Assembly (NCBI GenBank): GCA_016789445.1 | Contig: JAEUQT010000002.1 | Coordinates: 72,052-136,051 of the forward strand | Source of the DNA: a bacterium | GTDB taxonomy: Bacteria > Patescibacteriota > Minisyncoccia > Phycocordibacterales > UBA2100 | Length of the DNA stretch: 64,000 bases | Direction of reading: 5' to 3' | Shown here: one piece after another, positions 5,439-46,346 of the stretch | How positions within the stretch are numbered: the first letter of the stretch is position 1 | Layout: the number at the start of each line of letters is the position of its first letter | Translations under genes and position numbers: made by a program | Notes under the pieces: model-generated | Told to the model about the DNA's origin: nothing | Database searches by the model: none | Seen by the model: only the letters and a program-made list of their open reading frames with translations

Positions 5439-5441
5439 GCT

Positions 5442-9179: not shown

Positions 9180-9182
9180 TCT

Positions 9183-15773: not shown

Positions 15774-16550
15774 ATGGATCTGAGAGAGCTCTGGCAGGGA
15801 AGGGAATTGCTGCTTTTTTTTACGTGGCGCGACCTCAAGATCCGGTACAAACAGACTTTCATCGGCGTCGGATGGGCCATATTCCAGCCGCTCTCGACGA
15901 TGTTGATTTTCACGGTCTTGTTCGGCAAGTTTGCCAAGATCCCTTCCGACAATATCCCATATCCCGTATTCGTCTTCACGGGCCTACTGTTCTGGCAGCT
16001 CTTTTCTGCTTCGCTTCTGCAGGCAAGCAATAGCCTGGTCGCGAATCAGAACCTTCTTACGAAGGTATATTTTCCCCGCATCCTTCTGCCGATTTCGTCG
16101 GTATTCTCAAATCTGATCGATTTCCTTATCGCGTCAGTAATCCTCGCGGGTCTTATGGTGTGGTACGGATTCGTTCCTGAGCTGCGGGGACTTTTTATAC
16201 TGCCGCTCCTTCTTCTTATTACCTGTGTTTTTGCGGTCGGGCTTGGGCTTCTGCTCTCGGCAGTGAACGTTAAATACCGCGACGTTAAGTATGTTCTTCC
16301 GTTCTTCGTTCAGTTACTCATGTTTGTAACCCCGGTCATTTATTCACCATCCATACTGGGAAAATATTCCTGGGTACTCGCACTGAATCCGATGACCGGC
16401 GTGATTAAGGCGGCACGAGCAGCGCTTTTCGGTCTGCAGCCGATCAATTGGACTTTGCTCGGTCTTGCTGCACTCGCTGCGCTTATTGTCCTGGTAATTG
16501 GACTTGTCTACTTTAAGCAGACCGAACGATTCTTTGCAGATCTCATATGA
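15774..16550 (+). CDS. wzm: ABC-2 type polysaccharide export permease (Wzm/TagG-like)
   Basis: MDLRELWQGRELLLFFTWRDLKIRYKQTFIGVGWAIFQPL is the canonical ABC-2 permease N-terminus. It has 6 predicted TM helices and overlaps the downstream ATPase by 4 bp. Confidence 0.7.
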   Translation: MDLRELWQGRELLLFFTWRDLKIRYKQTFIGVGWAIFQPLSTMLIFTVLFGKFAKIPSDNIPYPVFVFTGLLFWQLFSASLLQASNSLVANQNLLTKVYFPRILLPISSVFSNLIDFLIASVILAGLMVWYGFVPELRGLFILPLLLLITCVFAVGLGLLLSAVNVKYRDVKYVLPFFVQLLMFVTPVIYSPSILGKYSWVLALNPMTGVIKAARAALFGLQPINWTLLGLAALAALIVLVIGLVYFKQTERFFADLI

Positions 16551-17797
16551 AGCCCATTATTGAAGTTAAATCTATCTCCAAGTCATATGTCTTGTCGGGC
16601 AAGAGCGATTACTATTTTGCCTTGCGTGACTCGCTCGCGGCTCTGATACAGAGACCCGGATCTTTTCTTGCTCGGAAAACAAAGCAAATAAGCGAATCGA
16701 TGGTTTTCTGGGCGTTAAAGGACGTAACGTTCTCAGTGGAGCCCGGCGAGATTGTCGGCGTCATTGGAAGGAATGGGGCAGGGAAATCAACTCTATTGAA
16801 GATACTCAATCGCATAACCGAGCCGACAGATGGAGAGGTAGTGATACGTGGCCGCATCTCGTCGCTCCTTGAAGTCGGTACGGGTTTCCATCCCGAACTT
16901 ACCGGGCGTGAGAACATCTATTTCAGCGGCGCAATCCTCGGTATGAAGCGAAGCGAGATCGCGCGTAAGTTCGACGAGATTGTCGCGTTTGCTGAAGTCG
17001 ATAAATTCCTAGATACACCCGTAAAACGATATTCCTCTGGAATGCAGGTGCGTCTGGCTTTTTCAGTTGCAGTGCATATGGAGCCCGACATTTTGCTGAT
17101 TGATGAAGTATTGGCTGTTGGAGACGCTGAATTTCAAAGAAAGTGTCTTGCAAAAATACATGAATCTGCTCGAAAATACGGACGTACCATCCTTTTCGTC
17201 AGCCATAATCTGGATGTCGTTCAAAGTCTATGCGATAGGAGTGTATTGCTCGAAGAAGGTCAAGTAAGAATGGTGGGCCCGACATCAGAAGTAGTCTCTA
17301 CCTATTTAGAGAGAATGGAAGCTAACTCAGGGGTTGCGCGCATTGAATTTCCTGAAGATTCTTCAAAAGGATTTGAACTAAAATCTGTTACCGTGCGTGG
17401 TGGCGACGGGCAACCGGCAACTACTTTCGAGCCCGATGTTCCTTTTAGGGTAGATGTGGAATATGAGGTTCGTGATAAAAAATCAAAATTCTGGATTACG
17501 GCTTCATGCACTAATGAGCATGGTGCTCTTGTATTCTATTCACGAGACACGGATAAGAATCCTAATTTGCTTGCTCGTAGAAAGGAGGGTATTCACAGGT
17601 CTGTATTCACGTTTCCAAGCAATAGTCATATTGCGATGAATGTTGGAAATTACAGTCTGACTGTTCGGATTGAACAAGATCCTTCTCGAGAAGCTATAAT
17701 ACCGCTGCAGATTACAAACGTAACCAATCGATTCTCGCATCATCATCATGGTGTAATGCTGGTCGAGAGTCCATGGGATAACACGGAATCATCATGA
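16547..17797 (+). CDS. wzt: ABC transporter ATP-binding protein (Wzt/TagH-like) with C-terminal extra domain
   Basis: Walker A GRNGAGKSTLLKIL, signature YSSGMQVRLAFSVAV and Walker B ILLIDEV are present. An additional ~170-aa C-terminal domain, as in O-antigen Wzt proteins, may bind a glycan terminus. Confidence 0.8.
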   Translation: MKPIIEVKSISKSYVLSGKSDYYFALRDSLAALIQRPGSFLARKTKQISESMVFWALKDVTFSVEPGEIVGVIGRNGAGKSTLLKILNRITEPTDGEVVIRGRISSLLEVGTGFHPELTGRENIYFSGAILGMKRSEIARKFDEIVAFAEVDKFLDTPVKRYSSGMQVRLAFSVAVHMEPDILLIDEVLAVGDAEFQRKCLAKIHESARKYGRTILFVSHNLDVVQSLCDRSVLLEEGQVRMVGPTSEVVSTYLERMEANSGVARIEFPEDSSKGFELKSVTVRGGDGQPATTFEPDVPFRVDVEYEVRDKKSKFWITASCTNEHGALVFYSRDTDKNPNLLARRKEGIHRSVFTFPSNSHIAMNVGNYSLTVRIEQDPSREAIIPLQITNVTNRFSHHHHGVMLVESPWDNTESS

Positions 17798-18519
17798 AAT
17801 ATTCGCCGAAATGGATTGGAAAAAAAATATTTGCACGCTTCCTTCAAACTCGGGAAAAAATCGGATTTCTACCTCTGGAAGGGATTTATGCGATTATTGC
17901 CAGCTATGGCTATAAGAATCTTGATTTCCCTGAAGCACTAAAAGTGATAGAAAAAATCCGAGAAGATAAATGGGTTCTCCAAAGCAATCTCGAGATGTAT
18001 CAATTATTCTCTTTGGCAAAAAAAACCAGCAAATTGGACGGCGAAGTTGCAGAGGTTGGGGTATATCGAGGAGGCTCTGCAAGAATCATACGCGAAGCGA
18101 CCTCAAAACCGCTGCATCTTTTCGATACTTTTTCTGGAGTTCCTAAGCCTTCTGAAAAAGATGAGCCTGATCAGGCAGAAGAGGGAGAATTAGCTTTTCC
18201 GCTCGAAGGCGTGCAAGAATATCTTAAGAATTATCAAAACATTTTCTATTACAAGGGTTTTTTTCCAGACTCCGCAACCGAAGAAATTAAGGCAAAGAAA
18301 TTCTCATTTGTCCACCTCGATGTTGATTTGTATCAGTCAACATTGGATGGACTGAAATTCTTCTATCCAAGGATGACGAAAGGAGGGGTAATCATATGTC
18401 ACGATTACGGGAAAATTGATGGCGCCCGAAGAGCGTTTGATGAATTCTTTGCTGACAAGAATGAAATAATAATAAAACCAGTTGAGACAATTCAATGCTT
18501 CATTATTAAAACTGCATAA
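17794..18519 (+). CDS. TylF/macrocin-O-methyltransferase-family SAM-dependent methyltransferase
   Basis: 241 aa. It has the MTase motif EVGVYRGGSA and an acidic region VHLDVDLY typical of TylF-like O-methyltransferases. It overlaps wzt by 4 bp and the region is AT-rich. Confidence 0.5.
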   Translation: MKYSPKWIGKKIFARFLQTREKIGFLPLEGIYAIIASYGYKNLDFPEALKVIEKIREDKWVLQSNLEMYQLFSLAKKTSKLDGEVAEVGVYRGGSARIIREATSKPLHLFDTFSGVPKPSEKDEPDQAEEGELAFPLEGVQEYLKNYQNIFYYKGFFPDSATEEIKAKKFSFVHLDVDLYQSTLDGLKFFYPRMTKGGVIICHDYGKIDGARRAFDEFFADKNEIIIKPVETIQCFIIKTA

Positions 18520-18540
18520 GATCTAGCGCTCATTTGTTAC

Positions 18541-19284
18541 TCATCGACGTATCTTACGTACGATTCTTTGAAATAGATTCATCTTACTCGAACCCAAAAT
18601 TTTCCACTTCTTTCTTAAAGTGGGCAAATGCCATTCAGAATTTGGGCGCGCATATCTATGTACAAAAAGCGTTTGTCCGGATGTCTGATATGGCATGCAA
18701 TCGATGAGAAACATGAAGGAAGAATCAATGACATGAACTTCCGACGCGGATTCGATAATTTTCCCGTAATCGAAAATGTTATCCGTAAATCCAGTATTAG
18801 GAGCGATATGTGGCAATGTGGTCGAAATTCGCCGTCGCTTAATTGTGAAATTTCGTTCCTGGTCCTCGTGGAGGAATATATACGGTTTTGGGGGCGCTAT
18901 ACGATTATATAAATTTTGCTCGCGTATCAGGTCTCTTTGGACTTGAAAGCTAGTCCATTTTTTCTCAAAAACCACATTGGCAAGTGCATAAAACTGTCTT
19001 TCAACCGATACGCCTGAGGTGCGGTTCAGAAGTTCAAAACCGATTTTTTGAATGGAATCGAATTTATCTTTATGCCGTGCAAGAAAATGTGGTGCCTCGA
19101 TATGAGAGCATGGGATAATTTCAAGATTTTTGATATCACGATACATAAATGAGACGGAGGCAAGAGTCTGAGGTGCGGCAAGGATTGTTACGTGTGTGAA
19201 GCGAGTACAGTAGTCACGAACGATGCCGTGACAGATAATTTGATCCCCCAATCCGAGGTGAGAATAAAGAAGTACGGACGTCAT
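18541..19284 (-). CDS. Hypothetical protein (possible small GT-B-like/heptosyltransferase-like enzyme)
   Basis: ORF on the minus strand with the start placed at MTSVLLYSHLGLGDQIICHG (ATG at 19284). The longer ORF to 19506 would overlap the divergent ADH gene. Low GC. No confident family assignment. Confidence 0.3.
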   Translation of the reverse strand: MTSVLLYSHLGLGDQIICHGIVRDYCTRFTHVTILAAPQTLASVSFMYRDIKNLEIIPCSHIEAPHFLARHKDKFDSIQKIGFELLNRTSGVSVERQFYALANVVFEKKWTSFQVQRDLIREQNLYNRIAPPKPYIFLHEDQERNFTIKRRRISTTLPHIAPNTGFTDNIFDYGKIIESASEVHVIDSSFMFLIDCMPYQTSGQTLFVHRYARPNSEWHLPTLRKKWKILGSSKMNLFQRIVRKIRR

Positions 19285-19329
19285 AAAACGGAGTGTACCA
19301 TTCACGTCGCTGCGTGCTAGAATGTCGCG

Positions 19330-20376
19330 GTGAAAATGAAAGCGGCCATCCTTGAGACGATAGATGCCCCCCTTACTATCGGGGAGGTTACCGTGGGGCA
19401 GCCTGCTTTCGGACAAGTATTGGTGAAGGTTCTCGTGAGCGGGATCTGCGGCGCCCAACTTCAGGAAATCGCCGGAAACAAAGGGAATGCAAAGTTCGTG
19501 CCACATCTTCTAGGCCATGAAGGATGCGGCATCGTCGAGGCTGTCGGAGAAGGTGTCACGCGCGTCAAAAAAGGAGATAAAGTCGTGATGCATTGGCGTA
19601 AAGGCGAGGGGATAGAATCCGATTTCCCGACATACGAATATGCGGGTAAGAACATGCCGAGCGGAAAAGTCACTACGTTCAGTGAGTATTCGTTGGTCTC
19701 TGAAAATCGGCTGACCGCGGTTCCGCACGACACTCCTGATGAGCTGTGCGCACTTCTCGGCTGTGGACTCTCGACCGCGTTAAGTGTGATAAATGATGAG
19801 GCGCGCGTACTGTTCGGCGAGAGCGTTCTTGTCATCGGCGCAGGCGGCTTGGGACTAAATATCCTTCAAGCGGCGAACATAGCACGTGCATATCCCATCG
19901 TGACTATCGATATCCATCCTGGAAAGAAGGAATTGGCCGAAAAGTGTGGAGCGCATCTATTCGTTGATTCGACACAAAGTGATATACGAGAGGTAGTTCA
20001 GAAGACGTTCGGTATTTCGGATTTTGATGTAATCATCGACACCTCAGGAAATAAGAAGGCCATCGAGACAACCCTCCCGCTTTTGCGAGGAGGAGGGCGG
20101 TACATCATGGTCGGACAACCGAAGCCAGGAGAAGTGATCGAGATTTCGAATGCACATCACCTGTTCGGCGGAGAAGGTAAGTCTATTCGTGCAACACAGG
20201 GTGGCGGTTTCTTGCCGACGACCGATATTCCGCGGTATATCAATCTGTATAAGACCGGAGCGCTCCATATCGACGACGTCATCACGCATCGGATCAAGCT
20301 AGATCAGGTGAACGACGCGATCGATGCGATCCGGAGCGGCACGGCGGGCCGTATCATGATCGAAATGCACGTATGA
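19330..20376 (+). CDS. Zn-dependent alcohol dehydrogenase (MDR family)
   Basis: HLLGHEGCGIVEAVGEGV is the zinc-ADH signature, and GAGGLGL is the NAD(P)-binding motif. Confidence 0.7.
   Translation: MKMKAAILETIDAPLTIGEVTVGQPAFGQVLVKVLVSGICGAQLQEIAGNKGNAKFVPHLLGHEGCGIVEAVGEGVTRVKKGDKVVMHWRKGEGIESDFPTYEYAGKNMPSGKVTTFSEYSLVSENRLTAVPHDTPDELCALLGCGLSTALSVINDEARVLFGESVLVIGAGGLGLNILQAANIARAYPIVTIDIHPGKKELAEKCGAHLFVDSTQSDIREVVQKTFGISDFDVIIDTSGNKKAIETTLPLLRGGGRYIMVGQPKPGEVIEISNAHHLFGGEGKSIRATQGGGFLPTTDIPRYINLYKTGALHIDDVITHRIKLDQVNDAIDAIRSGTAGRIMIEMHV

Positions 20377-34582: not shown

Positions 34583-34586
<4 letters not shown>
34110..34586 (-). CDS. gmm: NUDIX hydrolase, GDP-mannose mannosyl hydrolase-like (Gmm/WcaH)
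   Basis: 158 aa with a Nudix box ([23 protein letters not shown]). Its position between gmd and fcl is as in colanic-acid-type operons. Confidence 0.7.
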
Positions 34587-35620
<1,034 letters not shown>

Positions 35621-35711
35621 GGTGGTAGCCAGTGCATGGTAGCTGTGGCGCCCGCATTCCGCAAGGAAAACCTCTTGCATCTCAAGTGGGTGAGGGGCAT
35701 ACTTCCGTATC

Positions 35712-36503
35712 ATGAAGAAAACGAAGACCGTCTCTGAGAAGTGGGTTGCTGTCTCGGGAGGGTTCGATCCTATTCATATCGGGCATGTGCGCATGATGCA
35801 GGCGGCCCGCAAGCTGGGGGATAGGCTCCTCGTCATCCTCAATAACGACCACTGGCTGCGCGACAAGAAGGGTTTTGCCTTTATGCCGCAGAAGGAGAAG
35901 GTGGAGCTCCTCAAATCATTCCCGTTCGTCGACAAGGTGGTGCTCACCGATCACAAGCCAGGCGACCAAGATCGCAGTGTCTCGCGCACACTCCGCAAGG
36001 TGAAGCCGCACATCTTCGCGAACGGCGGCGATCGCGGCAAGGGCAATACGCCGGAGATGGATGTCTGCAAGGATCTCGGTATCACGATGCGTTTCAATGT
36101 CGGGAAGGGCGGTAAAGTGCAGTCTTCCTCGTGGATGATCAATGCCTCAAGTCGTGAGGTGCGCCGGAGCGTGCGCCCCTGGGGCGAGTTCTACGGATGG
36201 GACAGCGGTCAGGGCTGGTATCTGAAGACGCTCTACGTGAATCCGAATAGCCGCCTCTCGCTCCAGTATCACCATCACCGCTCCGAGCGTTGGGTCTTGG
36301 TGCAGGGCGATGCGACCGCGGTCACGATCGAAAAGGGAAAGGAGAAGAAGACCAAACTCAAGGTGGGTGAGACCTTCATCGTGCCGAAAAGAATGCCGCA
36401 CCGCCTCACTTCCAAGAATGGCGGTACGCTCGTGGAGGTCGCGGTCGGCAATTTTGATGAAAACGACATCGTACGCCTCCAGGACGACCACGGTCGCGTG
36501 TAG
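35712..36503 (+). CDS. Fusion: cytidylyltransferase-like nucleotidyltransferase + C-terminal cupin (mannose-6-P isomerase type II C-domain-like)
   Basis: The N-terminus has [12 protein letters not shown], the HxGH nucleotidyltransferase motif. The C-terminus has [20 protein letters not shown] cupin motifs. It is divergent from gmd. Confidence 0.5.
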
Positions 36504-36515
36504 TACAATCTTCCT

Positions 36516-38699
36516 ATGGCGCTGGAGAAATTCCTTCGCGGCGTAGCTCTGACGGGAGTATTCGCGCTCCCGTTCGTCGTGTTGTACGTCGCGAATTCCA
36601 TGTTCTTCCCGTTCATTACGGGGAAGAACTTCGCATTCCGCATCATTACCGAGATCGTCTTCGGCGCGTGGCTTGCGCTCGCCTTCATCCGATCCGAATA
36701 CCGACCGCGTAATTCGTGGCTCCTCTGGGCATTCGCGGCATTCGTCGCAGTAATTGGTATCGCTGATATCTTCGGCGTCTACCCAATGAAGAGTATCTGG
36801 AGCAACTACGAGCGCATGGATGGCTGGGTGACCCTGGTGCACCTCTTTGCCTACTTCGTCGCAGCAACCTCGATCCTCAATACGGAGAAACTCTGGCGGG
36901 CATGGTGGCACACCTCGCTCGCAGTATCCGTCGTCGTGGCGTTCATCGGTATCTTCCAATTCATGGGTTTTGTCGGCATCAATCAGGGCTCGACCCGTTT
37001 GGATGCTCGCCTCGGCAACGCAACCTACGCGGCCGTCTACATGCTCTTCCATGTCTTTATCGCGGCGCTCTTTATGGCGCGGCTGTGGGCAGAGAAGGCG
37101 AAGGATAAGGGCTTCTACACCTGGCTCTACGCTTCGATAATTGCCGTCGATTCGTTCGTGCTCTTCTTCTCGGGTACACGCGGTGCCATCCTCGGCATCT
37201 TGGGCGGTGCAATGCTTTCCGCACTCATCCTTATCGTACTTGCGCCGCGTTCGCGTGTCGCATGGCGTGCGGGAACGGCGATCGGCATCTTCCTCGTCGT
37301 CGCGGGCGGTTTCTGGCTCGTGAAGGACCAGGCGTGGGTCCAGAAGATCGAGCCCTTGCACCGTATCGCCACCTTGAATAACGACGGCATCACCATCGCG
37401 CGCGTCCTTAACGCGCAGATGGCGTGGGAAGGCTTCAAGGAGCGCCCGATCCTGGGGTGGGGCCAAGAGAACTACGCGGTTGTCTTCGATAAGAATTATC
37501 TTCCAGCAATGTATGCGCAGGAGCAGTGGTTTGATCGTACGCACAACATCGTGATGGACTGGCTCATCGCCGGCGGCATCTTGGGTCTCTTGGGCTATCT
37601 CTCGCTCTATCTTTTCTCGCTTCTCATGGTCTGGCGATCAGGTGCGTTTGCGCCGTATGAAAAGGCGCTCCTCACCGGTTTCTTTGCGGCGTATTTCTTC
37701 TATCTCGTATTCACGTTCGATAATCTCCTCAGCTATCTTCTCTTCGCATCGATGCTTGCGTATATCACCGTGCGAGCGCAATCGGTGCAGCCACGAGAAC
37801 GCATCGCGGGGCCAGTTGATCCGAAGTATCTTCCGATCGTGGCGGTTGTCGTGCTTATCGGTACGTGGGGCATCGGCTGGTATGCAAATGCAAGCATGAT
37901 CAGTGCGAATAGAACGCTCATCCAGGCGATGATGCCACAGCCGCAAGGCGCTGAACGCAACCTGCAGCTCTTCCAGGAGGCGCTCGCGAAGCCGCGCGCC
38001 GGGCATCAGGAGATTCGTGAACAGCTCGCCCAAGCGGCAATGAGTGCGGTCGGTACCGAAGGTATCAGCAACGACGTGAAGCAGCGTTTCCTTCAGCTGG
38101 CGGTCAGCGAACTCGAAAAGCAGATGCAAGAGGCTCCGCTTGCGGCGCGACCGCCGTTCTTCCTCGGCGTCCTTCTTAATCGCGTTGGTGCATATCCGGA
38201 GGCAAAGATCGCGCTCGAGAAAGCACAGGCGCTCTCGCCGCAGAAGCAGGGAATCATGTTCGAGCTTGGATTGAATGCGGAGGCGCGGGGCGCAAAGGAC
38301 GAGGCGCTCGCGATCTTCAAGAAAGCATACGATCTCGCACCTGCGTCGCATGAGGCAAGCATCAATTACGCAACGGCGCTTCTTCGTGCCGGAAAGGATG
38401 CCGAAGCTGATGAGGTATTGAAGCCCATTATCGAGAAGGGGGAGACGAACGATCAGCGCATCGCGGCGGCGTATGCAGGGCGAAATCGTTTCGATACGAT
38501 CGTCGAGATCTGGACTCGATATGTAGAAGTGAATCCCACGGTTCCTGATGCGCGATTCGTACTTGCCGGCGCATACTACTCTGCGGGCAATAAAGAGAAA
38601 GCGATCGAAGTTTTGGAGGAAACGAAGCGCGCCATTCCGTCTGCTGCAGCGCAGGCCGATGGTCTCATTCAGCAGATTCGCACGGGGAATACTCAGTAG
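36516..38699 (+). CDS. O-antigen ligase/Wzy_C-domain polytopic membrane protein with C-terminal TPR repeats
   Basis: 727 aa with about 12 TM helices. It carries the Wzy_C-like motif GTRGAILGILGGAM and a large external loop. The C-terminal ~250 aa are TPR-like helical repeats (EAKIALEKAQALSP..., KDEALAIFKKAYDLAP...). Confidence 0.55.
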   Translation: MALEKFLRGVALTGVFALPFVVLYVANSMFFPFITGKNFAFRIITEIVFGAWLALAFIRSEYRPRNSWLLWAFAAFVAVIGIADIFGVYPMKSIWSNYERMDGWVTLVHLFAYFVAATSILNTEKLWRAWWHTSLAVSVVVAFIGIFQFMGFVGINQGSTRLDARLGNATYAAVYMLFHVFIAALFMARLWAEKAKDKGFYTWLYASIIAVDSFVLFFSGTRGAILGILGGAMLSALILIVLAPRSRVAWRAGTAIGIFLVVAGGFWLVKDQAWVQKIEPLHRIATLNNDGITIARVLNAQMAWEGFKERPILGWGQENYAVVFDKNYLPAMYAQEQWFDRTHNIVMDWLIAGGILGLLGYLSLYLFSLLMVWRSGAFAPYEKALLTGFFAAYFFYLVFTFDNLLSYLLFASMLAYITVRAQSVQPRERIAGPVDPKYLPIVAVVVLIGTWGIGWYANASMISANRTLIQAMMPQPQGAERNLQLFQEALAKPRAGHQEIREQLAQAAMSAVGTEGISNDVKQRFLQLAVSELEKQMQEAPLAARPPFFLGVLLNRVGAYPEAKIALEKAQALSPQKQGIMFELGLNAEARGAKDEALAIFKKAYDLAPASHEASINYATALLRAGKDAEADEVLKPIIEKGETNDQRIAAAYAGRNRFDTIVEIWTRYVEVNPTVPDARFVLAGAYYSAGNKEKAIEVLEETKRAIPSAAAQADGLIQQIRTGNTQ

Positions 38700-38783
38700 C
38701 GCTTGCGTGAATGTGCCTCAGGATTACAATAGTGGAGTGAGTGTCACAAAGTGTGATGCCTTCAAGATCGAAAGTCCGCAGAT

Positions 38784-38806
38784 CCCGCCTTCGGCGGGGT
38801 TTTGCG
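38784..38806 (+). terminator. Candidate intrinsic terminator (CCCGCC-UUCG-GCGGG + U-rich)
   Basis: GC stem with a UUCG tetraloop followed by GTTTTGCG, about 85 nt after the ligase stop. Confidence 0.35.
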
Positions 38807-39019
38807 TTCCTGTACCGCACCCGAGCATTGCTCGGGTTCATTCGTACAGGAACGGAAAACCGGTCGGAGCGGGGTACCCGCATCTGGCGGGTCGCGAGAC
38901 GGGCCCGCGAGCGCTTAGTATTTTGGAGCATGGCGAACAAAATACTTAGCGACACGTGGGTTTTGCGTTATAGGGGATTGCGTTCAATGCGAATAGTTCT
39001 ACACTTGGGAGAGATAAAG

Positions 39020-39338
39020 GACCCACAACGCAGGGCGGCGGCACTCACATTTGACTTTCACTTTTGGAGCTCGCACCCGTCCTGCGCTGTGGGTCTTTTT
39101 TGTTTGGGTGCTCTGTTTGTTGCGTAGAGGTGAATGCGAGCTCCAAAAGCGAAGGGGGTCGGGGAAACTGTAGTTTCCCCGTGGAGGAGATATTTAAGAA
39201 CCGCAGGTTCTTAACGCGTAGCGTTTTGCGTGCTCGCACCCGTCCTGCGCTGTGGGTCTTTTCTCTTTTGAGAAAAGACATGCTGGACGGGTGCGAGCTT
39301 TGCTGCGCTGTCTGCGCTGTGGGTCTTTTTTGTTGAAA
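39020..39338 (+). repeat. Cluster of nested inverted repeats and three copies of CTGCGCTGTGGGTCTTTT(TT)
   Basis: Motif copies at 39081-39101, 39246-39262 (diverged tail) and 39312-39333. The 15-bp stem 39020-34/39081-95 is followed by T6. Perfect 14-bp inverted repeats lie at 39061-74/39136-49 and 39232-45/39285-98. Smaller hairpins sit at 39161-80 and 39194-39214. Confidence 0.55.
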
Positions 39339-39441
39339 GAAAAAACTTCTTCGAAAAAACTTTCAGCCCATTCTTTTTATCGTTACAAAAATATTTTTAT
39401 ACAAACTTTTTTAATCTTTTATTACTTATAAAAAATAAAAG

Positions 39442-39450
39442 TTATCCACA
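39442..39450 (+). promoter_or_regulatory. Perfect DnaA-box-like nonamer TTATCCACA in AT-rich tract
   Basis: Exact match to the E. coli consensus, within a ~200-bp AT-rich region. A single box only. Confidence 0.15.
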
Positions 39451-39583
39451 GAAAAAAATAAAAATGCATGCAATAAAAATAGCGAGTGCAATAATTCAGA
39501 AAACGCATCTGCGATTTTCAATAAGAGCTGATGCGGGTCGAAAGAAAATATTTTACTCCCTAGGGAAAAAGTAAAAAATACTA

Positions 39584-39634
39584 TGGCAAAGAAAAAGAAG
39601 GCAAAGAAGGCAAAGAAGGCAAAGCGCCAGTAGT
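39584..39634 (+). other. Tiny Lys-rich ORF MAKKKKAKKAKKAKRQ built on a 3x tandem 9-bp repeat (AAGAAGGCA)
   Basis: ATG preceded by GGGAAAAAG. It is followed ~50 nt downstream by a strong hairpin terminator. Coding status unknown. Confidence 0.15.
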
Positions 39635-39684
39635 CATTCGCGGCTACGCCGCGACGACCTGGTCTGAGCAATCTTGCTTGAGCC

Positions 39685-39720
39685 GACAATCCCTCCCTCC
39701 GGAGGGATTGTCTTTGTATA
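39685..39720 (+). terminator. Intrinsic terminator-like hairpin (12-bp perfect stem GACAATCCCTCC/GGAGGGATTGTC, 4-nt loop, TTTGTAT tail)
   Basis: Read directly from the sequence. It lies 40 nt upstream of the secA start. Confidence 0.5.
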
Positions 39721-39760
39721 AGCCTGCATATGGGTGCATCGAGGGGTATTTTGAGTTACT

Positions 39761-42313
39761 ATGTCGCGACGTATGTCATTCCTCAATCGATGGTTCGGGG
39801 ACGGCTCAGGATCGGCTTTGCGCAAAGCGGAGCCTATCGTGGCTAAGGTAAATGCCCTCGAGGAAAGCTTTATGGCGCTCAATGACGACGCCCTGAAGGC
39901 TAAAACGGCGGAATTCAAGGCTCGTATCGCCTCAGGGGAAAGCTTGGACGACCTTATGCCGGAAGCTTTCGCGGCCGTACGTGAGGCATCCCGCCGCACG
40001 CTCGGCCAGCGTCATTTCGATGTGCAGCTCATCGGCGGCGCAGTCCTCCATCAGGGCGGTATTTCCGAGATGCGCACCGGTGAAGGTAAGACCCTTGTGG
40101 CGACGCTGCCGGCATACCTCAATGCACTCATGGGCAAAGGCGTGCACGTGGTCACCGTCAACGACTACCTCTCGCGCCGCGACGCGGTCTGGATGGGGCA
40201 GGTGTACTGGGCGCTCGGCATGACGACCGGCATCATCAATCACGAGGCGTCCTATCTTTACGACCCGACGATCGTGCCGGAGGAAGAGAAGAAAGAAGAT
40301 GAGAAAGTGCAGGACGAACAGGGAAGTTTCAAGGTCGTGCACGAATTCATGCGCAAAGTATCGCGCGAAGAGGCGTATGCGGCGGATATCACCTACGGCA
40401 CCAACAATGAGTACGGATTCGATTACCTGCGCGACAACCTTGAGTACGACCCTGCAAAGATCCGTCAGAAGAACCACTACTTTGCGATTGTGGACGAGAT
40501 CGACTCGATTCTTATCGATGAGGCGCGCACGCCACTCATAATCTCTGCGCCGACCGCCGATGCGGAGGGTCTCTACACGAAGTTCGCCAAGATCGCGGAA
40601 ATGATGATCGAGGACGAGGATTACACTATCGAGCACAAGCATCGCGCGATCGTCATGACTGACGCCGGTATCGAGAAGGCGGAGAAGATGCTCGAGATCG
40701 GCTCTATCTATACCGACGCGGGTATCAAATACGTGCACCATCTGGAAACGGCGGTGCGTGCAAAGGCGCTGTATCATCGTGATAAGGAATACGTCGTGCG
40801 TGGCGGCGAAGTCGTCATCGTCGATGAATTCACCGGCCGTATGCAGCCGGGCCGTCGCTGGAGCGAGGGTTTGCATCAGGCGATCGAAGCGAAGGAAGGC
40901 GTGGCTATCCAGAAGGAATCGCGCACATTCGCATCCATCACGTTCCAGAATTACTTCCGTCTCTACGAGAAGCTCGGCGGCATGACCGGTACGGCGGCAA
41001 CCTCTTCAGAGGAGTTCTTCAAAGTGTACGGCCTCACGTCGGTCGCTATCCCGACGAACAATCCGCCACAGCGTATCGACCACGAGGATTTCATGCTCCA
41101 GACGGAGAACGGCAAATTCCGCGCTATCGCAAAGAAGGTGAAGGAGTTGCATGAGAAGGGGCAGCCGGTACTTGTGGGCACTGTCTCTGTCGAGAAGAAC
41201 GAGTTGCTTAGTACCTATTTCAAACAGGAAGGTATTCCGCACGAGGTCCTCAATGCGAAGAACCACGAACGCGAAGGCGAGATCGTAGCGCAGGCAGGCA
41301 AGAAGGGTGCGGTCGTTATCGCCACCAACATGGCGGGTCGCGGCGTCGACATCAAGCTCGGCGGAAATCCGGCAACGCAGGAAGAATACGATGCGGTGAA
41401 GAACGCGGGAGGTCTTTTTGTCATCGGTACCGAGCGCCACGAAGCACGCCGCATCGACAACCAGTTGCGCGGCCGTGCAGGCCGTCAGGGCGATCCGGGT
41501 GAGACGCAGTTCTATGTTTCCCTCGAAGATTCGCTGATGAAGATCTTCGCCTCTGATGTCATCAAGCGCGTCATGGGAACCTTCAAGATTCCGGAAGACG
41601 AGCCGATCTTCAATAGCATGATCACGCGCTCACTCGAGAAGGCGCAGACGCGCATCGAGGAAATGAACTTCGATTCACGTAAGCACGTTCTTGCCTACGA
41701 CGATGTCTTGAATATCCAGCGTAAGAGTATCTACGGTCGCCGCCGTGCGGTACTCACGGGAGGGAATGAGGCAGTGGACAAGGAATTGGAAGATGTGACT
41801 GGCATGCTTCTTGAGGAAAGTGAGCGCGATGCGTGGACCAAGGCAGTGGAGAGCCTTAAGGCGAAGCATGGCGAAGCGTTCTATCCAGCAGTCCGACGCC
41901 TCCTCCTCCAGACCGTCGATCTTCTCTGGGTCGAGCACCTTGAAGCGATGGAATACCTCCGCTCTTCGGTGAATTTGCGTGCGTATGGCCAGCGCGACCC
42001 TCTCGTCGAGTACAAGAAGGAGGGCCTACGCCTCTTCCAAGGCCTTGAAGCCTCTTTTGCATCGCATGTCGCCTCGAATCTGCCGAATCTCTTCGATCAG
42101 CGCCCGGCACAGGTCGCGCCGATGCGTCAGCAGGAAAGTGCCGCAGTCGCACGCGCCGCACAGGCCCTTACGGCCTCAAATGGTGCCTCAGGAGCTAAGA
42201 AATACGGCCGCAACGATAAGGTAACCATTACCGACGGCACAACCACTGAGGAAATGAAATACAAGAAGGCCGAACCGCTCCTCATGAGCGGGAAGTGGAG
42301 GATCGTGAAGTAG
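39761..42313 (+). CDS. secA: Preprotein translocase ATPase SecA
   Basis: 850 aa. The N-terminus LNRWFG..., the DEAD-like motor motifs GEGKTLVATLPAYLNAL, TVNDYLSRRD and IVDEIDSILIDEARTPLIIS, and the C-terminal region are all canonical SecA. Confidence 0.95.
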   Translation: MSRRMSFLNRWFGDGSGSALRKAEPIVAKVNALEESFMALNDDALKAKTAEFKARIASGESLDDLMPEAFAAVREASRRTLGQRHFDVQLIGGAVLHQGGISEMRTGEGKTLVATLPAYLNALMGKGVHVVTVNDYLSRRDAVWMGQVYWALGMTTGIINHEASYLYDPTIVPEEEKKEDEKVQDEQGSFKVVHEFMRKVSREEAYAADITYGTNNEYGFDYLRDNLEYDPAKIRQKNHYFAIVDEIDSILIDEARTPLIISAPTADAEGLYTKFAKIAEMMIEDEDYTIEHKHRAIVMTDAGIEKAEKMLEIGSIYTDAGIKYVHHLETAVRAKALYHRDKEYVVRGGEVVIVDEFTGRMQPGRRWSEGLHQAIEAKEGVAIQKESRTFASITFQNYFRLYEKLGGMTGTAATSSEEFFKVYGLTSVAIPTNNPPQRIDHEDFMLQTENGKFRAIAKKVKELHEKGQPVLVGTVSVEKNELLSTYFKQEGIPHEVLNAKNHEREGEIVAQAGKKGAVVIATNMAGRGVDIKLGGNPATQEEYDAVKNAGGLFVIGTERHEARRIDNQLRGRAGRQGDPGETQFYVSLEDSLMKIFASDVIKRVMGTFKIPEDEPIFNSMITRSLEKAQTRIEEMNFDSRKHVLAYDDVLNIQRKSIYGRRRAVLTGGNEAVDKELEDVTGMLLEESERDAWTKAVESLKAKHGEAFYPAVRRLLLQTVDLLWVEHLEAMEYLRSSVNLRAYGQRDPLVEYKKEGLRLFQGLEASFASHVASNLPNLFDQRPAQVAPMRQQESAAVARAAQALTASNGASGAKKYGRNDKVTITDGTTTEEMKYKKAEPLLMSGKWRIVK

Positions 42314-43813
42314 CTATTTCTCCTGGAAGGTCGGCAGGATGCGCACGGTCACTTGTCTCGAGTGCGTATCGCCGCGTGCGTCGCGGCAGGAAAGCGTGTA
42401 CTTCGTCTCGCCGGTGATCGGGCGTGATGTCTCGCCGCCGACAGGGGAGGTCAATCCGTTCCAGCTATCGCTGTTGGTTCCGGTGACGGTGCAGGAGACG
42501 ACGCCGGTCGCGCTCCAGTTTACTTTCGTGGAGTTGTTCTGGCGTACGAGTGATGGGATCGCGCGCAGAGTCAGGTCAATGGGTGCAGGGCCGACCGCTC
42601 CGCCATTGCCGCCGCCCGGGACACCATCATCGTCTTCGTTGAGACCGACGGTCTCTGTTCCTCCGGAGCAGGTGAAATTCACGCTCGCCCAGGTAGATGT
42701 GAGGCCGCTTTCGTCCTGTGTGAGGACTTTCACGGTCTTTGCGCCTGCAGTACCGAATGAGCGCGATGCGGTGACGGCCGTACCTGAATTGACGAAGCCT
42801 GAAGCAGGGACGTATTCATCTATCGTGCCGTTGTTGTTCCAGTCGATCGCGTAGCGGATCTTGTCGCCATCAGGATCGGTGGCGTTCATGGAGATGGTGT
42901 ACGGCGTACCGGCCACACATGCGCCGCCGCTGGCGGTGACATTAGGTGCAGCTGGCGGGTTGCCGACCGCATCCACGACCGTGATCGGGCATGAGATCGT
43001 CCGCACCGGAACGGGAAGCGTGTAGACGTTCGCCGTCGGCTTCGCGAACTGGCAGGATTTGAATTGTCTCTGCGAAGATATGTCGTCTCGGCAATCGTTG
43101 CCGGAAACTGTGTAGGTACGCATCGGGGAATTGCTGCCGAGGCAGTCATCCGTACTTCCGGCGACTTCGTTGTTCGTAACGACGGTTCGTCCATAGAATT
43201 GACCGCTCGTGGCGCCGAAATTAAAGACCACGGTGTTGCTGCCGATTTCCGTTGGGGTGCACTTCATGACGCCATCGCTGAGCGAGCTGCATCCAAGGTT
43301 ACTCTGGCCGGTGATCGATTTGCTTGGCGGTGCGACCGAAAGCGGGACATACATCTTTCCGTTTACCTGGTCTTTCGCGAGGCATTGATGCGGCGAGCCG
43401 GCAGGTGGGCCTGCGTTTGCGATCCAATCGCCATACGGTGTGTCGTTGGAATATCCGACGCCGTTCCACGAGATGTCCGTATAGTGATGAGGGACGAATT
43501 CGAAGGAAAGCCTGTCTCCCTTAGTGACGGTGCTACCGCATGCTATCTGGGTCCCCTTGGTCTCATTCACTACGCGGACGTTGTATTCGATAGATACGTT
43601 CCTGCTCATGAGACGTGTGGCCGTACACGGGCCGCCGTATTTATTGACATACGTCTTACTCTTTTCTGATCCACCCGGACCCCAGCTAGGCATACAGATC
43701 TTTGTTGTAGATGTATTTGTCCAGATAGCACTCTCCGCATGCACAGTAGTAATGGTGAAGAACGAAAGCAAAACAATCGCACAGGCCCCAATAATGCGAC
43801 GTGAGATGGTCAT
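42314..43813 (-). CDS. Secreted Cys-rich protein with PKD/Ig-like domain
   Basis: Signal peptide MTISRRIIGACAIVLLSFFTITTVHAES. It has about 20 Cys residues, a NATDPDGDKIRYAIDWNNNGTIDE (PKD-like) segment and a Gly-rich linker. Its stop codon abuts the secA stop. Confidence 0.5.
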   Translation of the reverse strand: MTISRRIIGACAIVLLSFFTITTVHAESAIWTNTSTTKICMPSWGPGGSEKSKTYVNKYGGPCTATRLMSRNVSIEYNVRVVNETKGTQIACGSTVTKGDRLSFEFVPHHYTDISWNGVGYSNDTPYGDWIANAGPPAGSPHQCLAKDQVNGKMYVPLSVAPPSKSITGQSNLGCSSLSDGVMKCTPTEIGSNTVVFNFGATSGQFYGRTVVTNNEVAGSTDDCLGSNSPMRTYTVSGNDCRDDISSQRQFKSCQFAKPTANVYTLPVPVRTISCPITVVDAVGNPPAAPNVTASGGACVAGTPYTISMNATDPDGDKIRYAIDWNNNGTIDEYVPASGFVNSGTAVTASRSFGTAGAKTVKVLTQDESGLTSTWASVNFTCSGGTETVGLNEDDDGVPGGGNGGAVGPAPIDLTLRAIPSLVRQNNSTKVNWSATGVVSCTVTGTNSDSWNGLTSPVGGETSRPITGETKYTLSCRDARGDTHSRQVTVRILPTFQEK

Positions 43814-44165
43814 ATGTAGTTAAGTATCGTCGAAAAAGTGCTGAAAACCGAGGGGGCACTGTGAATAGCAAAGCGTAAATAAGTGAACACAAAACCGGTA
43901 CCAGCAATAAGAAGGATGGCAGCGCATGATTCCGCGCTGGTCATGCGTCTCAGAGAGGCGTCACGAGCACGTCGAGCCGAACTATGGGTATGCAGGGCAT
44001 GAGGGGTCACTCGAGAGCGGGAGGGGCAATAAAGCCATCGGTCCCACGACGCTCTGTTTGGAGCCATTCAGCCAGTTTCCGATAGAATCATGCATCTTTT
44101 ATGCGTCGGTGTAGTTACAAACGCCTGCGGGGAGCTCATATCCACATGCCAGCCATAGAATCTTC

Positions 44166-44369
44166 TCACGCCTTGTAATAAAACTCTTCTCTGAAGAGCC
44201 GAGTGATGTAGTTAGGAGAAAGTCCAACTTGAATTGCCGCTCCCTTAGTCGAGTGGCACTCTGTCTCCTTGGAAGTAATCATAAAAAACGCAAGAGAATC
44301 CAGAAAATGCCAACGTTCCTCGTTAATACTCACTATTGTATATATCGACCTCCTAGTTTGGTATTCCAA
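44166..44369 (-). pseudogene. Possible remnant of an AraC/XylS-family HTH regulator
   Basis: The 67-aa ORF ends ...AIQVGLSPNYITRLFREEF, matching a single AraC-type HTH helix signature. It is too short to be functional and lies next to a mobile element. Confidence 0.2.
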
Positions 44370-44387
44370 TAACCTTAATGGCTTTCA

Positions 44388-44460
44388 AATTCGAGATATC
44401 GGCACCGAGATACGAAACATATTGATATCTCGTTCAATATCGGATTAATCTCGGATTGAT
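44388..44460. repeat. ATCTCGGAT-family motif cluster (locus A)
   Basis: TCGAGATATCGGCACCGAGATACG ... GATATCTCG ... AATATCGGATTAATCTCGGATTG. Shares a core with the arrays at 55971-56108 and 60545-60620. Confidence 0.35.
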
Positions 44461-44635
44461 CTAAAGCCGCAATTAATGCCGCTATGGAAAACGAGTGAGT
44501 AAGCGGCATCGCGACTATCAAAGACGAGTTTCTATGCATTCTATTGAGTGAGTGCGACGTTCATTTCATAATTTGACGTCAACTATAAAACGTTGTGCAT
44601 GTAGATACTGGACGTATCCGGCTTACTGAGAGGGG

Positions 44636-45425
44636 ATATGGACGTCTGACGTCCATATTTCTTGTTATCATGTATCGCATGGAATTCTTTCACGTGGTGA
44701 ATCGCGGAATCGATAATCGGATGATCGTTCTTGATGATAAGGATCGCATGCGATTCGTGCATTCGCTTTTCGAATTGAATGATCAGATGCTTGCTGATCC
44801 GAATCATCGTCTGCGCGATTTTGATCCGATGCGTAAGCGGGAAACATTGGTCGCGATCCATGCATGGTGCCTCATGCCGAATCATTATCATCTTCTTCTT
44901 ACTGAATCCATTGAAGGTGGGATCTCGCTTTTCTTGAAGAAGCTCAACATGGGCTATGCAAAATATTTCAATCAGAAGTATGAGCGCAGCGGGGCTCTGT
45001 GGCAGGGGAAGGCAAAAAAGTTGCGTATCAAGAAGGATGAGAACTTCCACCTCATGCCGAAGTACATCCATCTGAACCCGTTGGACCTCTCGTTTCCGAA
45101 TTGGCGCAAGGGTAATCTGAAAGACCCCGATCATGCGCTTGACAGGCTTCGCACGTATCGGTGGAGCAGTCACCTCGACTACGTGGGGGAGAGTAATTTT
45201 CCCTCCCTTATCCGCATGGGAATCGTCAGGGATTCGGTAGGGGATCGCTACGCTTACGAGAAAGGATTGAAGGAAATCACGGAAGATGCTGAATTGGCGC
45301 AACATAGTGCCATTTTGGAGTAATTTCGGTTCATTTTTTGAGTAGGTTTTATAGGTGTTATTTCAATTTTGACGAAAAAAGCTATGGACATCGACAGTCC
45401 ATATATGGACATCCGATATCCATAC
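44636..45425 (+). mobile_element. IS200/IS605-family (RAYT-like) single-ORF insertion element, approximate bounds
   Basis: The HUH/Y1 transposase ORF is flanked by subterminal palindromes: ATATGGACGTCTGACGTCCATAT (44636-44658) upstream, and ATGGACATCGACAGTCCATATATGGACATCC (about 45383-45425) downstream. Confidence 0.45.
44679..45323 (+). CDS. IS200/IS605-family Y1 (HUH) transposase TnpA / REP-associated tyrosine transposase-like
   Basis: FHVVNRGIDNRMIVLDDKDRMRFVHSL (the typical TnpA/RAYT N-terminus), the HUH motif HAWCLMPNHYHLLL, and SGALWQGK. The start is placed at MEFFHVV; the ORF-track start at 44595 adds an unlikely 28-aa leader. Confidence 0.65.
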   Translation: MEFFHVVNRGIDNRMIVLDDKDRMRFVHSLFELNDQMLADPNHRLRDFDPMRKRETLVAIHAWCLMPNHYHLLLTESIEGGISLFLKKLNMGYAKYFNQKYERSGALWQGKAKKLRIKKDENFHLMPKYIHLNPLDLSFPNWRKGNLKDPDHALDRLRTYRWSSHLDYVGESNFPSLIRMGIVRDSVGDRYAYEKGLKEITEDAELAQHSAILE

Positions 45426-45776
45426 CGGCGTCATTATTTGATCAAATGGACACTCCTCAATGCGTCTGCGTGCATAGCTTCAAAAATTAGACATTCCGCT
45501 TTGAAAATTGCGAAATCAGGTTTGTATCTGAATATTTTAGGGAAAAAATCGAGCAAAACAGGCCTTTAACGATGATACGCCTGCTGTTTTGTGCATGATA
45601 GTGCGCCATGCAACGAAGAAGGTGGGGCTGAGATTTCGTCGGTGATCAGAGGCAGCTGTTTCCCTCACAAAAGCCGTGCCGGCATGCATTTAGGGTAGTC
45701 GTACCAGACCACATTTTGATCTCGATTCGCGCGGCCAATGACTCGCAGCAGGTGAGGAATTGGGCCTCTTTTGGCG

Positions 45777-46346
45777 TTAGTGAGCCAGGGTATAACGCGT
45801 CGATCGGCCCTTACCGGTGCGGAAGAGTTTGCCGCGAGAGATGAGTATCCTTGCATACCGTGATGCGGTGGAATCGGAGACTGCTAGGAGTTTCTGAATG
45901 CCGTCGTTCGTGATGTGCGTATGCGAAGCAAGATGACTCAGAATCTTCTCCAGATCATTCTCGCGCTTACGGGTACGATGTTCCAGAGATTTAAGTCGAC
46001 CCGCACTTCCTTGAAATCTTTTCTCAACAACTGCGTGAGATTGATCGGCGGGTGTATCACTTCCAGAATTATGCGCGGTAGTAGTTCCGGAATCTGAGGA
46101 AGTCTTCGTGCTATTTGATTCAACTGCAGACACGTGGGTGGTATCAGCGCTGGTTTCCGTTTTCCTAGCTGCATCAGCAGGCACTTCATCGCTATTGGTT
46201 GGAGAAGTATTTGATACGGATATTGGAGTCTCAATATCGACCGGCAGGGCGCTCGTTGGTACGGGAGTAGTCACGTGGTCTTGAACGCGCTGTTCGGAGG
46301 CTACTTGAAGTTCAGTAGGTTCAGGAGTTGGGGTTGGGTCTGTCAT
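45777..46346 (-). CDS. Small protein with Thr/Pro/Ser-rich N-terminus and C-terminal winged-helix HTH
   Basis: 189 aa. The C-terminal ITNDGIQKLLAVSDSTASRYARILISRGKLFRTGKGRSTRY resembles a wHTH DNA-binding domain. It lies 136 bp downstream of the giant protein gene on the same strand. Confidence 0.4.
   Translation of the reverse strand: MTDPTPTPEPTELQVASEQRVQDHVTTPVPTSALPVDIETPISVSNTSPTNSDEVPADAARKTETSADTTHVSAVESNSTKTSSDSGTTTAHNSGSDTPADQSHAVVEKRFQGSAGRLKSLEHRTRKRENDLEKILSHLASHTHITNDGIQKLLAVSDSTASRYARILISRGKLFRTGKGRSTRYTLAH

Follow-up and report, generated by a model that had tools for sequence, protein, structure and literature searches.

A spacer upstream of secA in Parcubacteria-group bacteria is probably an island of small genes, two of them for RNAs that appear to base-pair

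Trans-encoded base-pairing small RNAs (sRNAs) are known together with RNA sponges or decoys, as in GcvB-SroC, ChiX-chb spacer and RyhB-3'ETS-leuZ. Plasmids and toxin-antitoxin loci carry antisense kissing pairs such as CopA/CopT, RNAI/RNAII and Sok/hok, and bipartite functional RNAs include tracrRNA:crRNA, two-piece transfer-messenger RNA (tmRNA) and U4/U6. Among very small proteins, SecM is a secreted peptide with a C-terminal arrest motif that is translationally coupled to secA, and Lys/Arg-rich micro-proteins include the ribosomal peptides bL37, bS22 and Thx as well as the histone-H1-like proteins with AKKA repeats. Here we compare these systems with a locus from the Candidate Phyla Radiation (CPR), bacteria that account for much of bacterial diversity, carry genomes of ~1 Mb and have for the most part not been cultured. 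The locus is a spacer of 1061 nt in a 64,000-nt stretch of contig JAEUQT010000002.1 (the window), lying between a gene for a 727-aa Wzy_C/TPR 'O-antigen-ligase-like' protein (36516-38699, + strand) and secA (39761-42313, + strand). A gene-free gap of 1 kb is unusual for such small genomes. Comparison with related loci makes it probable that Parcubacteria-group (CPR) bacteria keep in this spacer a conserved island of small genes that are independent of each other: two for RNAs, A and B, that would pair with one another, and a third gene, C.

The comparison drew on six relatives retrieved via SecA and on 120 metagenome contigs, and family counts are given over 126 loci (numbered L below). An exact-sequence look-up of the window's SecA returned no record. 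The close relatives retrieved through SecA carry the names Patescibacteria group, Candidatus Paceibacterota and Candidatus Kaiserbacteria, with SecA identities of 83-61%, and Kaiserbacteria are placed in the Parcubacteria group by the NCBI taxonomy. These six loci, found through SecA alone, have A, B and C in common, the remaining spacer being unalignable. The spacers of L001-L005 likewise cannot be aligned with that of the window over most of their length, while three blocks, A, B and C, are nearly identical. When the conservation of the window's spacer is profiled over all loci, peaks stand out at 38720-38810 (A), 39010-39100 (B) and 39400-39630 (C), with a fourth, weaker peak at 39130-39270 (D), and within the 64-kb window A, B, C and D occur in one copy each. 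The metagenome contigs were searched with a pattern made of B's two invariant segments, S1 and S2 (GGCGGCACTCAC N14-30 GGAGCTCGCAC). It matches at least 120 contigs, in a single copy per contig, including contigs of 100-200 kb (up to 213 kb), and gave no match in viral contigs. A route to remoter relatives through homologues of the ligase-like protein led no farther than the known loci, the best 120 matches listed ending at ~48% identity. B is flanked by the ligase-like gene in 87 loci and by secA in 88.

An earlier, sequence-only reading of the spacer had proposed, among other things, a nest of dispersed repeats of the repetitive extragenic palindromic or miniature inverted-repeat transposable element type. 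The spacer does contain many palindromes and local direct repeats, but its repeated 18-mer and 17-mer are confined to it within the 64 kb, its modules are single-copy there, and B is found once per metagenome contig, in a conserved syntenic position and never in the viral contigs. We give this proposal almost no credence. The features that make up A and B are the following.

38703-38730, + strand: promoter of A, TTGCGT (38703-08), 16 nt, TACAAT (38725-30)
38737-38808, + strand: sRNA A, ~72 nt
38978-39005, + strand: putative promoter of B, TTGCGT (38978-83), 16 nt, TACACT (39000-05)
39012-39101, + strand: RNA B, a hairpin of ~90 nt with a closing helix (39016-38/39077-99) and a U6 run after it

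A was found across the 126 loci with an iterated nhmmer profile, which has a single match in the window (E=2e-16). Its promoter begins 4 nt past the stop codon of the ligase-like gene. Among 101 distinct relatives the best sigma-70-like match before A has a mean score of 8.6/12, as against 5.1 in shuffles, and among the matches of at least 8/12 the -10 element lies exactly 6 nt ahead of GUGAGUG in 69 sequences. For the window itself the match is a modest 8/12, which did not pass a strict scan. From its 5' end A would consist of a single-stranded GUGAGUG (a1, 38737-45), a hairpin (H1), the linker GAAAGUC (a2, 38770-76) and an intrinsic terminator, CCCGCC-UUCG-GGCGGG followed by a U-run. MAFFT with RNAalifold recovered almost no structure for A because its hairpins vary in length, and folding was therefore done sequence by sequence. 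The terminator hairpin and U-run were present in 100/100 distinct A sequences, with 81 distinct arms, and an H1 of at least 5 bp in 90/100; the window copy folds with z=-3.2. These comparisons show A to be a predicted RNA gene of ~72 nt with a conserved promoter and intrinsic terminator.

The 115 distinct sequences of B align nearly gap-free, giving a closing helix of 23 bp with almost no length variation. In this stem 20/25 pairs have changed on both sides, and 94.2% of the stem cells are paired compared with 76.2% in column shuffles. Doubly changed cells number 596 where the shuffles give 174 +/- 13, a value that none of 500 shuffles reached, and when the register is slid by 1-3 columns pairing drops to 41-52%. 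Pairs of the G:U type outnumber A:C by 335 to 80, an excess that identifies the window's + strand as the RNA strand. The window copy folds with z=-6.4. Within the hairpin, the apical region contains b1 (GGCACUCAC, 39040-48), b2 (GACUUUC, 39053-59) and S2 (UUUUGGAGCUCGCACC, 39062-77). The six SecA-derived loci agree fully in S1 and S2, even where SecA identity is as low as 61%, and the whole apical region of ~37 nt is conserved to the nucleotide. Pairing between S1 and S2 is weak according to RNAalifold. The alignment thus shows B as a conserved hairpin RNA of ~90 nt, as far as sequence can tell, whose 23-bp stem keeps its length and changes by compensation. The arrangement of its putative promoter is the same in L001, and in compact relatives the -35 element lies inside the terminator tail of A. 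The sequence-only reading had suggested that the spacer might encode an unannotated noncoding RNA, and A and B make it more than one, both of them conserved and structured with strong covariation.

Some loci depart from the usual form of B. One sub-clade has an extra hairpin 5' of the stem (CUUCGUCAAGACUACGAAG; L004 5210-5300, L002 4480-4510, L003 5560-5600), which is tandemly repeated in L004. In L061, a contig of 5.7 kb, two inverted A-B pairs lie near the ends (165-348 and 5315-5500), and in the second B the S2 segment, invariant elsewhere, differs at one position (GGAGCTCGCAA); the contig may reflect either a genuine duplication or an artefact of assembly. Upstream of B in L045 and L072 lies a gene of a different family, not the ligase-like one.

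A adjoins B in 111/126 loci, and most of the remaining ones are cut by the end of a contig. In 93 loci A lies upstream of B on the same strand, in 7 upstream on the opposite strand and in 11 downstream on the opposite strand, so that the two are mostly on the same strand, at a distance of 30-250 nt, while either may be turned round with respect to its partner or to secA. The linker GAAAGUC of A (a2) is complementary to the loop sequence GACUUUC of B (b2). The positions compared were taken from two independent alignments, with no search for pairing, and on these the 7-bp core of a2:b2 is 96-100% paired. In a concatenated alignment of 60 rows 6/9 pairs have changed on both sides. There are 41 doubly changed cells as against 19.2 +/- 3.2 in shuffles, 0/500 of which reach 41, and in register 92% of the cells are paired compared with 27-44% in slid registers. 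Different clades have the covariants GAAAAUC/GAUUUUC, GAAAAAC/GUUUUUC, GAAUGUC/GGCAUUU, GAAGGUC/GACCUUC and AAAAGUC/GACUUUU, and clade-specific extensions lengthen the helix to 11-13 bp. From this pattern of covariation, RNAs A and B appear to base-pair through a2:b2. A second complementarity joins the 5' end of A, GUGAGUG(YC) (a1), with (GG)CACUCAC of B (b1). Variation in a1 mostly preserves wobble pairing, with C to U opposite G in 33 rows. Since a1 and a2 are in the same 5'-to-3' order on A as b1 and b2 are on B, the contact would be a docking at two sites and not a continuous duplex.

A number of observations weigh against this account of A and B. The a2:b2 shuffle control ignores relatedness, and the covarying events may number perhaps 5-6 independent ones. 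For a1:b1, whose B side the search pattern had fixed, the sequences give complementarity alone; a1 has a U-to-C change that mismatches b1 in 7/60 rows; and, as the last 2-3 nt of a1 covary within A's own H1, a1:b1 can be at most ~7 bp. The same search pattern fixed S1 and S2, whose invariance in the metagenome loci is partly by construction, so that the independent evidence for their conservation comes from the six SecA-derived loci only. RNAcofold on A:B did not recover the loop-to-strand contact, because the program cannot model a loop paired with a free strand. No A turned up within 3-5 kb of B in L045, L050, L072, L073, L128 and L106. In one clade among these (L045, L050, L072, L073) the loop of B is GGAUGUU or GAAUGUU rather than GACUUUC, and an A with AACAUCC, predicted beforehand as the partner of GGAUGUU loops, would have to lie elsewhere in the genome, as none was found within 3-5 kb of those B copies. 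The promoter of B is weak across the family (7.2/12 compared with 5.7 in shuffles), and a U-rich tract follows the stem in 58/115 B copies, a proportion which also indicates that the helix is more than a terminator. Lastly, we infer expression, RNA ends and isoforms of the spacer genes from their sequences.

If A and B do meet, A would act as a trans-encoded antisense partner, docking at two sites on the apical loop of B (a1:b1 being the less certain of the two). Docking may open the weak apical S1:S2 helix and thereby expose the invariant GGAGCUCGCACC, to which a protein, RNase III or another RNA might then bind, so that A would remodel a structured RNA. No signal was found for A or B targeting the leader of gene C by duplex prediction (A:C-leader and B:C-leader). 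A more far-reaching possibility, which we hold only tentatively and consider unlikely, is that A and B are the two pieces of one structured RNA, a core and possibly essential component of Parcubacteria-group cells without counterpart in other bacteria. Such an RNA might serve as a ribonucleoprotein scaffold, or as a 6S-like or RNase III-dependent global regulator. Its 23-bp stem could be a ruler for a double-strand-binding protein, GGAGCUCGCACC an active or protein-binding site exposed only once A docks, and the poly-lysine micro-protein encoded next door a protein partner.

It could also be asked whether A, B or both are a highly divergent, perhaps two-piece, version of a known housekeeping RNA, such as 6S RNA, signal recognition particle (SRP) RNA, RNase P RNA or tmRNA. 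B is single-copy, widely conserved, indifferent to the orientation of its neighbours and has invariant internal-loop nucleotides, all of which are typical of housekeeping ribonucleoprotein RNAs, and two covarying partner RNAs recall two-piece tmRNA. The searches speak otherwise. Rfam 15 (4227 models) gave no match at gathering scores in the 64 kb, the family scan envisaged in the sequence-only reading thus coming back empty. At E<=10 only chance-level matches were seen in 38500-39900, where the best scored 23.9 bits against a gathering score of 100 (microRNA precursors and, of rnk_pseudo, the terminator portion). ARAGORN found neither tRNA nor tmRNA genes, permuted or not, in the 64 kb. Neither an SRP domain-IV motif (GNAR tetraloop, AGCA/GGA loops) nor conserved RNase P regions nor a tRNA-like end was seen, and 90 nt and 72 nt are well below the size of 6S RNA, a rod of ~180 nt with a large central bubble (RF00013). 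A comparison of B by eye, for leads only, with the consensus sequences of SRP domain IV, conserved RNase P regions, the T-box, the hammerhead and the K-turn gave no fit. A divergent housekeeping RNA is therefore quite improbable, and a pair of separate RNA genes remains the reading we prefer.

The window's copies of A and B are followed by further sequence which is found in some loci only.

38809-38969, + strand: E, a lineage-specific 3' extension of A
39102-39268, + strand: D, an optional 3' extension of B
39256-39335, + strand: a second extension of B, with a hairpin (39256-79), the complement of copy 2 of B's 3' strand (39282-98) and a third 3'-strand copy with T6 (39312-35)

Much of what had drawn attention to the spacer belongs to these extensions. 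The sequence-only reading had listed three copies of an 18-mer, and CTGCGCTGTGGGTCTTTT is indeed present in three exact + strand copies, at 39082, 39245 and 39312, with an inverted copy carrying 2 mismatches at 39016-39033 (4 matches where 0.06 are expected) and no match elsewhere in the 64 kb. It had also described a 15-bp stem (39020-34/39081-95) followed by T6; this exists, but it has one A.C mismatch and is part of a longer helix of 22 bp (39016-38/39077-99). Two inverted repeats prove to be longer than claimed, at 39057-75/39135-53 (19 nt, 95%) and 39232-48/39282-98 (17 nt, 94%), and hairpins were recovered at 39160-81 and 39194-214, whereas 38849-38865 is not the perfect hairpin it was taken for, the nearby perfect hairpin being CCGAGCattGCTCGG at 38821-35. 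That palindromes exceed the background is borne out by the terminator-like hairpins in the spacer, 8 compared with 1.8 +/- 1.4 in shuffles, and by folding z-scores of -6.4 (39008-39104), -8.8 (39008-39340) and -5.0 (39497-39725), though local G+C is 52-57% and not 58%. The mutually exclusive foldings are there as well, in that one 5' strand faces two or three 3' partner copies, and the copies vary with the 5' strand by lineage.

In D an anti-S2 segment (GCGAGCUCCAAAAG, 39135-49) is followed by two hairpins (39160-81, 39194-214) and then by copy 2 of the 3' strand of B, which has a U-run (39232-62); the GCGAGCUCCAAAG of D is the complement of UUUGGAGCUCGC in B. It is present in about 15-20 of the 126 loci, the window and L002 included, always 50-70 nt 3' of B and on the same strand. 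Within each of nine lineages copies 1 and 2 of the 3' strand are the same or almost the same, although the sequence differs among the lineages. The hairpin 39256-79 of the second extension has a counterpart directly 3' of B in L032 and L063, and L064 and L141 have other inserts that likewise end in a further 3'-strand copy. In the minimum free energy fold of 39008-39340 (333 nt, -164 kcal/mol) the helices are those of the 5' strand and copy 3, of S2 and anti-S2, and of copy 2 and its complement. Direct copies of the tail of A, GGGTTTTGCGTT, flank E at 38797-808 and 38958-69, and inside it are a complement of this tail (38844-61) and the hairpins 38821-35 and 38912-51. Homologous forms of E occur in about 9 loci; in L121, which has A turned round with respect to B, E goes with A in both side and strand. 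The copies that flank E match within a lineage and differ between lineages, and a compensatory change is seen in the 38912-51 hairpin. D and E thus bring in extra copies of the parent's 3' end together with their complements, which accounts for the repeats, interleaved palindromes and competing folds of the window.

These extensions can be read in two ways. Transcripts of A or B that read through into E or D may adopt alternative, mutually exclusive folds; or the extra 3'-strand copies (D, E and the third copy) may be functionless scars of insertion or duplication at gene 3' ends, in which case the competing folds would be accidental. Islands that insert into the ends of tRNA genes offer a parallel for scars, and each extension is bounded by direct repeats of the parent's 3' end, of 12 nt for E and 31-40 nt for D. 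Patchy distribution of D and E would fit as well, as would L032 and L063, which resemble clean deletions between repeats, and L132, whose three identical tandem copies suggest recent duplication. Set against this, D and E are homologous across lineages at 70% SecA identity and hence old, both keep a segment complementary to the parent (anti-S2 in D, anti-tail in E), and flanking copies that stay identical within a lineage while tracking its stem would require selection or continual gene conversion. We favour helix-switching read-through isoforms and regard scars as the less likely explanation, though one of some weight. The copies in L132 (~9069-9354) are of 40 nt, correspond to B's 3' half (GCTCGCACCCGTCCTTCACAAAGTGTATGATTTTTATTTT) and are spaced by ~120 nt, which looks like a recent tandem amplification.

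Between the extensions of B and secA lies module C.

39442-39450, + strand: DnaA box TTATCCACA, a single nonamer preceded by an A+T-rich tract (39336-39441)
39487-39541, + strand: promoter and leader of gene C, with an extended -10 element TGcAATAAT (39487-95) and a predicted start near 39502
39583-39633, + strand: tiny open reading frame (ORF), MAKKKKAKKAKKAKRQ, 16 codons and a stop
39685-39718, + strand: terminator of gene C, with a 12-bp stem, a 4-nt loop and TTTGT, ~45 nt before the secA ATG (39761)

Module C (39442-39718) is present in 84/126 loci and always faces secA. Its layout is constant in 71 distinct upstream regions, where the box is followed after 37-40 nt by the extended -10 element TGCAATAAT, then after ~7 nt by AACGCAUC-hairpin-GCGGGUCGA, an A-rich stretch and ATG GCA AAG AAA AAG. 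The leader has a 5' hairpin, CGCAUC...GAUGCG (39504-35), and a near-invariant GGGUCGA (39535-41). A second leader hairpin (39551-76) has undergone a compensatory change, with TTTTACT/AGTAAAA in the window and TTTTAGT/ACTAAAA in L001. MAFFT with RNAalifold gave almost no structure for the leader because the hairpins vary in length, and its fold depends on the few compensatory changes that are visible. The sequence-only reading had seen no credible ORF here, yet the 16-codon frame is kept, with ATG and stop, in 78 of the 84 related loci, as an ORF of 10-53 codons that starts MAKKKK and mostly ends RR, HR or RL. In L005 the box and leader are followed, in the place of the tiny ORF, by a Lys/Ala-rich ORF of 65 aa. 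Where L001-L004 were checked against the window, the differences proved synonymous or in-frame. Versions of 21-65 aa had no match in Pfam or NCBIfam, their low complexity making sequence tests uninformative. In L001-L004 a hairpin and T-run follow the tiny ORF, and in L002 an ORF of ~190 aa then intervenes before secA.

The perfect DnaA-box nonamer reported at 39442-50 is there and is single, being the only exact TTATCCAC in the 64 kb. As aGTTATCCACa, around the consensus 9-mer TTATNCACA, it is found by sequence in 62/71 distinct relatives, where its distance to the -10 element of gene C downstream is constant at ~37-40 nt. Such a strongly conserved perfect TTATCCACA beside an A+T-rich tract of ~100 nt might suggest a chromosomal replication origin or a site that titrates DnaA. 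However, the spacer has just one box within 1 mismatch, GC skew is positive on either side with the cumulative skew climbing steadily through the site, and the fixed distance from the -10 element is that of an operator or activator site. An origin or titration site is scarcely credible. With a sole box in 64 kb and no turn in GC skew, the box is better taken as a promoter-proximal site and, by analogy with the E. coli R-box consensus, most simply as a putative DnaA operator. Gene C most likely encodes a polycationic, nucleic-acid-binding micro-protein under DnaA control, as we infer from the composition of the ORF and its setting. A in some relatives is preceded by a similar box (TATCCACA / TAATCCACA) ~35 nt upstream of its -10 element (L003 5270-5280; L004 4920-4935, - strand; L119). 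The layout in these three is that of gene C, and the window's A has no such box.

The strong terminator shortly before secA, which the sequence-only reading had noted, is present as a 12-bp hairpin at 39685-39712. That reading had also offered a regulatory leader for secA; on this view the spacer as a whole would act in cis, as an attenuator or riboswitch whose alternative hairpins gate transcription into that gene. The terminator's position, ~45 nt from secA, would suit such a role, as would the alternative pairings of the window's 5' strand with several 3' strands, each with a U-run, and the fact that B precedes secA in the same orientation in 69/88 loci. But B is divergent from secA in the other 19/88, at least one ORF lies between the two in 47/88, and L001 has A and B inverted together as a block. 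A carries a promoter and a terminator of its own, and in the window gene C, with promoter, ORF and terminator, separates B from secA. The extension that creates the alternative folds is missing from more than 80% of loci, and no Rfam riboswitch model matches in 38500-39900 at E<=10. A secA leader is thus very improbable; the terminator at 39685-39718 ends gene C, and there is no demonstrable secA attenuator.

Elsewhere in the window, a GDP-mannose 4,6-dehydratase gene and a nucleotidyltransferase/mannose-6-phosphate-isomerase (cupin) gene lie upstream of the ligase-like gene (34583-36503), so that the left flank resembles a glycan-synthesis cluster. On the other side, an ORF of 499 aa (42314-43813, - strand) that converges on secA gave nothing in Pfam at E<=0.001. 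Two stretches of lower G+C, 16000-20000 (0.41-0.46) and 43000-46000 (0.47-0.49) compared with 0.52-0.58 elsewhere in the window, may be acquired islands.

Our search of the literature on noncoding RNAs of CPR bacteria and Parcubacteria, on 6S RNA, on DnaA boxes and on Lys-rich small ORFs upstream of secA found no description of these modules. A and B would be two RNA families new to Rfam 15, conserved over at least 120 environmental contigs. They offer a concrete RNA-RNA system, with sequence evidence for binding at defined sites, in organisms where regulators are scarce. Alongside them a 16-codon poly-lysine gene is conserved behind a DnaA box, and sRNA genes in these genomes seem to grow by 3' additions in which their own terminators are used again. 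Where a gene caller leaves the 1 kb of this spacer empty, it would miss at least three genes.

Compared with the described systems, gene C is like SecM in being a very small ORF directly upstream of secA, but its predicted product is a 16-aa poly-Lys peptide without a signal peptide, arrest motif or hydrophobic segment, and a 12-bp terminator, in some loci with other genes, stands between it and secA. The predicted peptide is extremely basic, as known ribosome- and DNA-binding peptides are, and the 35-65-aa members of its family resemble H1-type Lys/Ala repeats, although to our knowledge the ORF is far shorter than any described H1-like protein. As for the RNAs, the window and about 15-20 relatives resemble terminator/antiterminator switches in having one 5' strand for which two or three 3' strands with U-runs could compete, as well as built-in competitor segments. 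Attenuators and riboswitches, on the other hand, have a downstream ORF in fixed orientation, which A-B lacks; its switch part is optional, and it has no known aptamer.

With the bipartite RNAs A and B would share being separately made, joined by conserved intermolecular helices and, to judge from their linkage, inherited as a pair. Unlike tracrRNA:crRNA they have no CRISPR array or cas gene nearby, their neighbours being the Wzy_C/TPR gene, secA, murB and gatB, and no regular, evenly spaced repeat array was found in the window's spacer; unlike two-piece tmRNA they have no tRNA-like domain, tag ORF or Rfam match. The proposed docking of a free end of A on the loop of a stable hairpin in B is reminiscent of the kissing pairs, as is the presence of a long perfect duplex that RNase III could cleave. 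The genes of A and B, however, do not overlap, their complementarity is of 7 + 7-13 nt and not complete, and the locus is chromosomal, single-copy and syntenic with no replicon or toxin ORF associated.

The likeness to sRNAs and their sponges is that A, known from sequence alone, is small, has its own promoter and intrinsic terminator and exposes short single-stranded seeds, and that it would pair with the noncoding RNA of another gene through a complementarity that is short, discontinuous and apparently kept by covariation. It differs in that both partners are conserved across a very deep clade and genomically linked, in the two non-nested contact sites of A:B, in the rigid 23-bp hairpin and invariant loop of B and, as far as we know those systems, in 3' modules that copy the 3' ends of A and B themselves. 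By analogy, A would seem to be an ordinary trans-encoded sRNA in kind, whose contact with B resembles that of sRNA-sponge or kissing antisense pairs.

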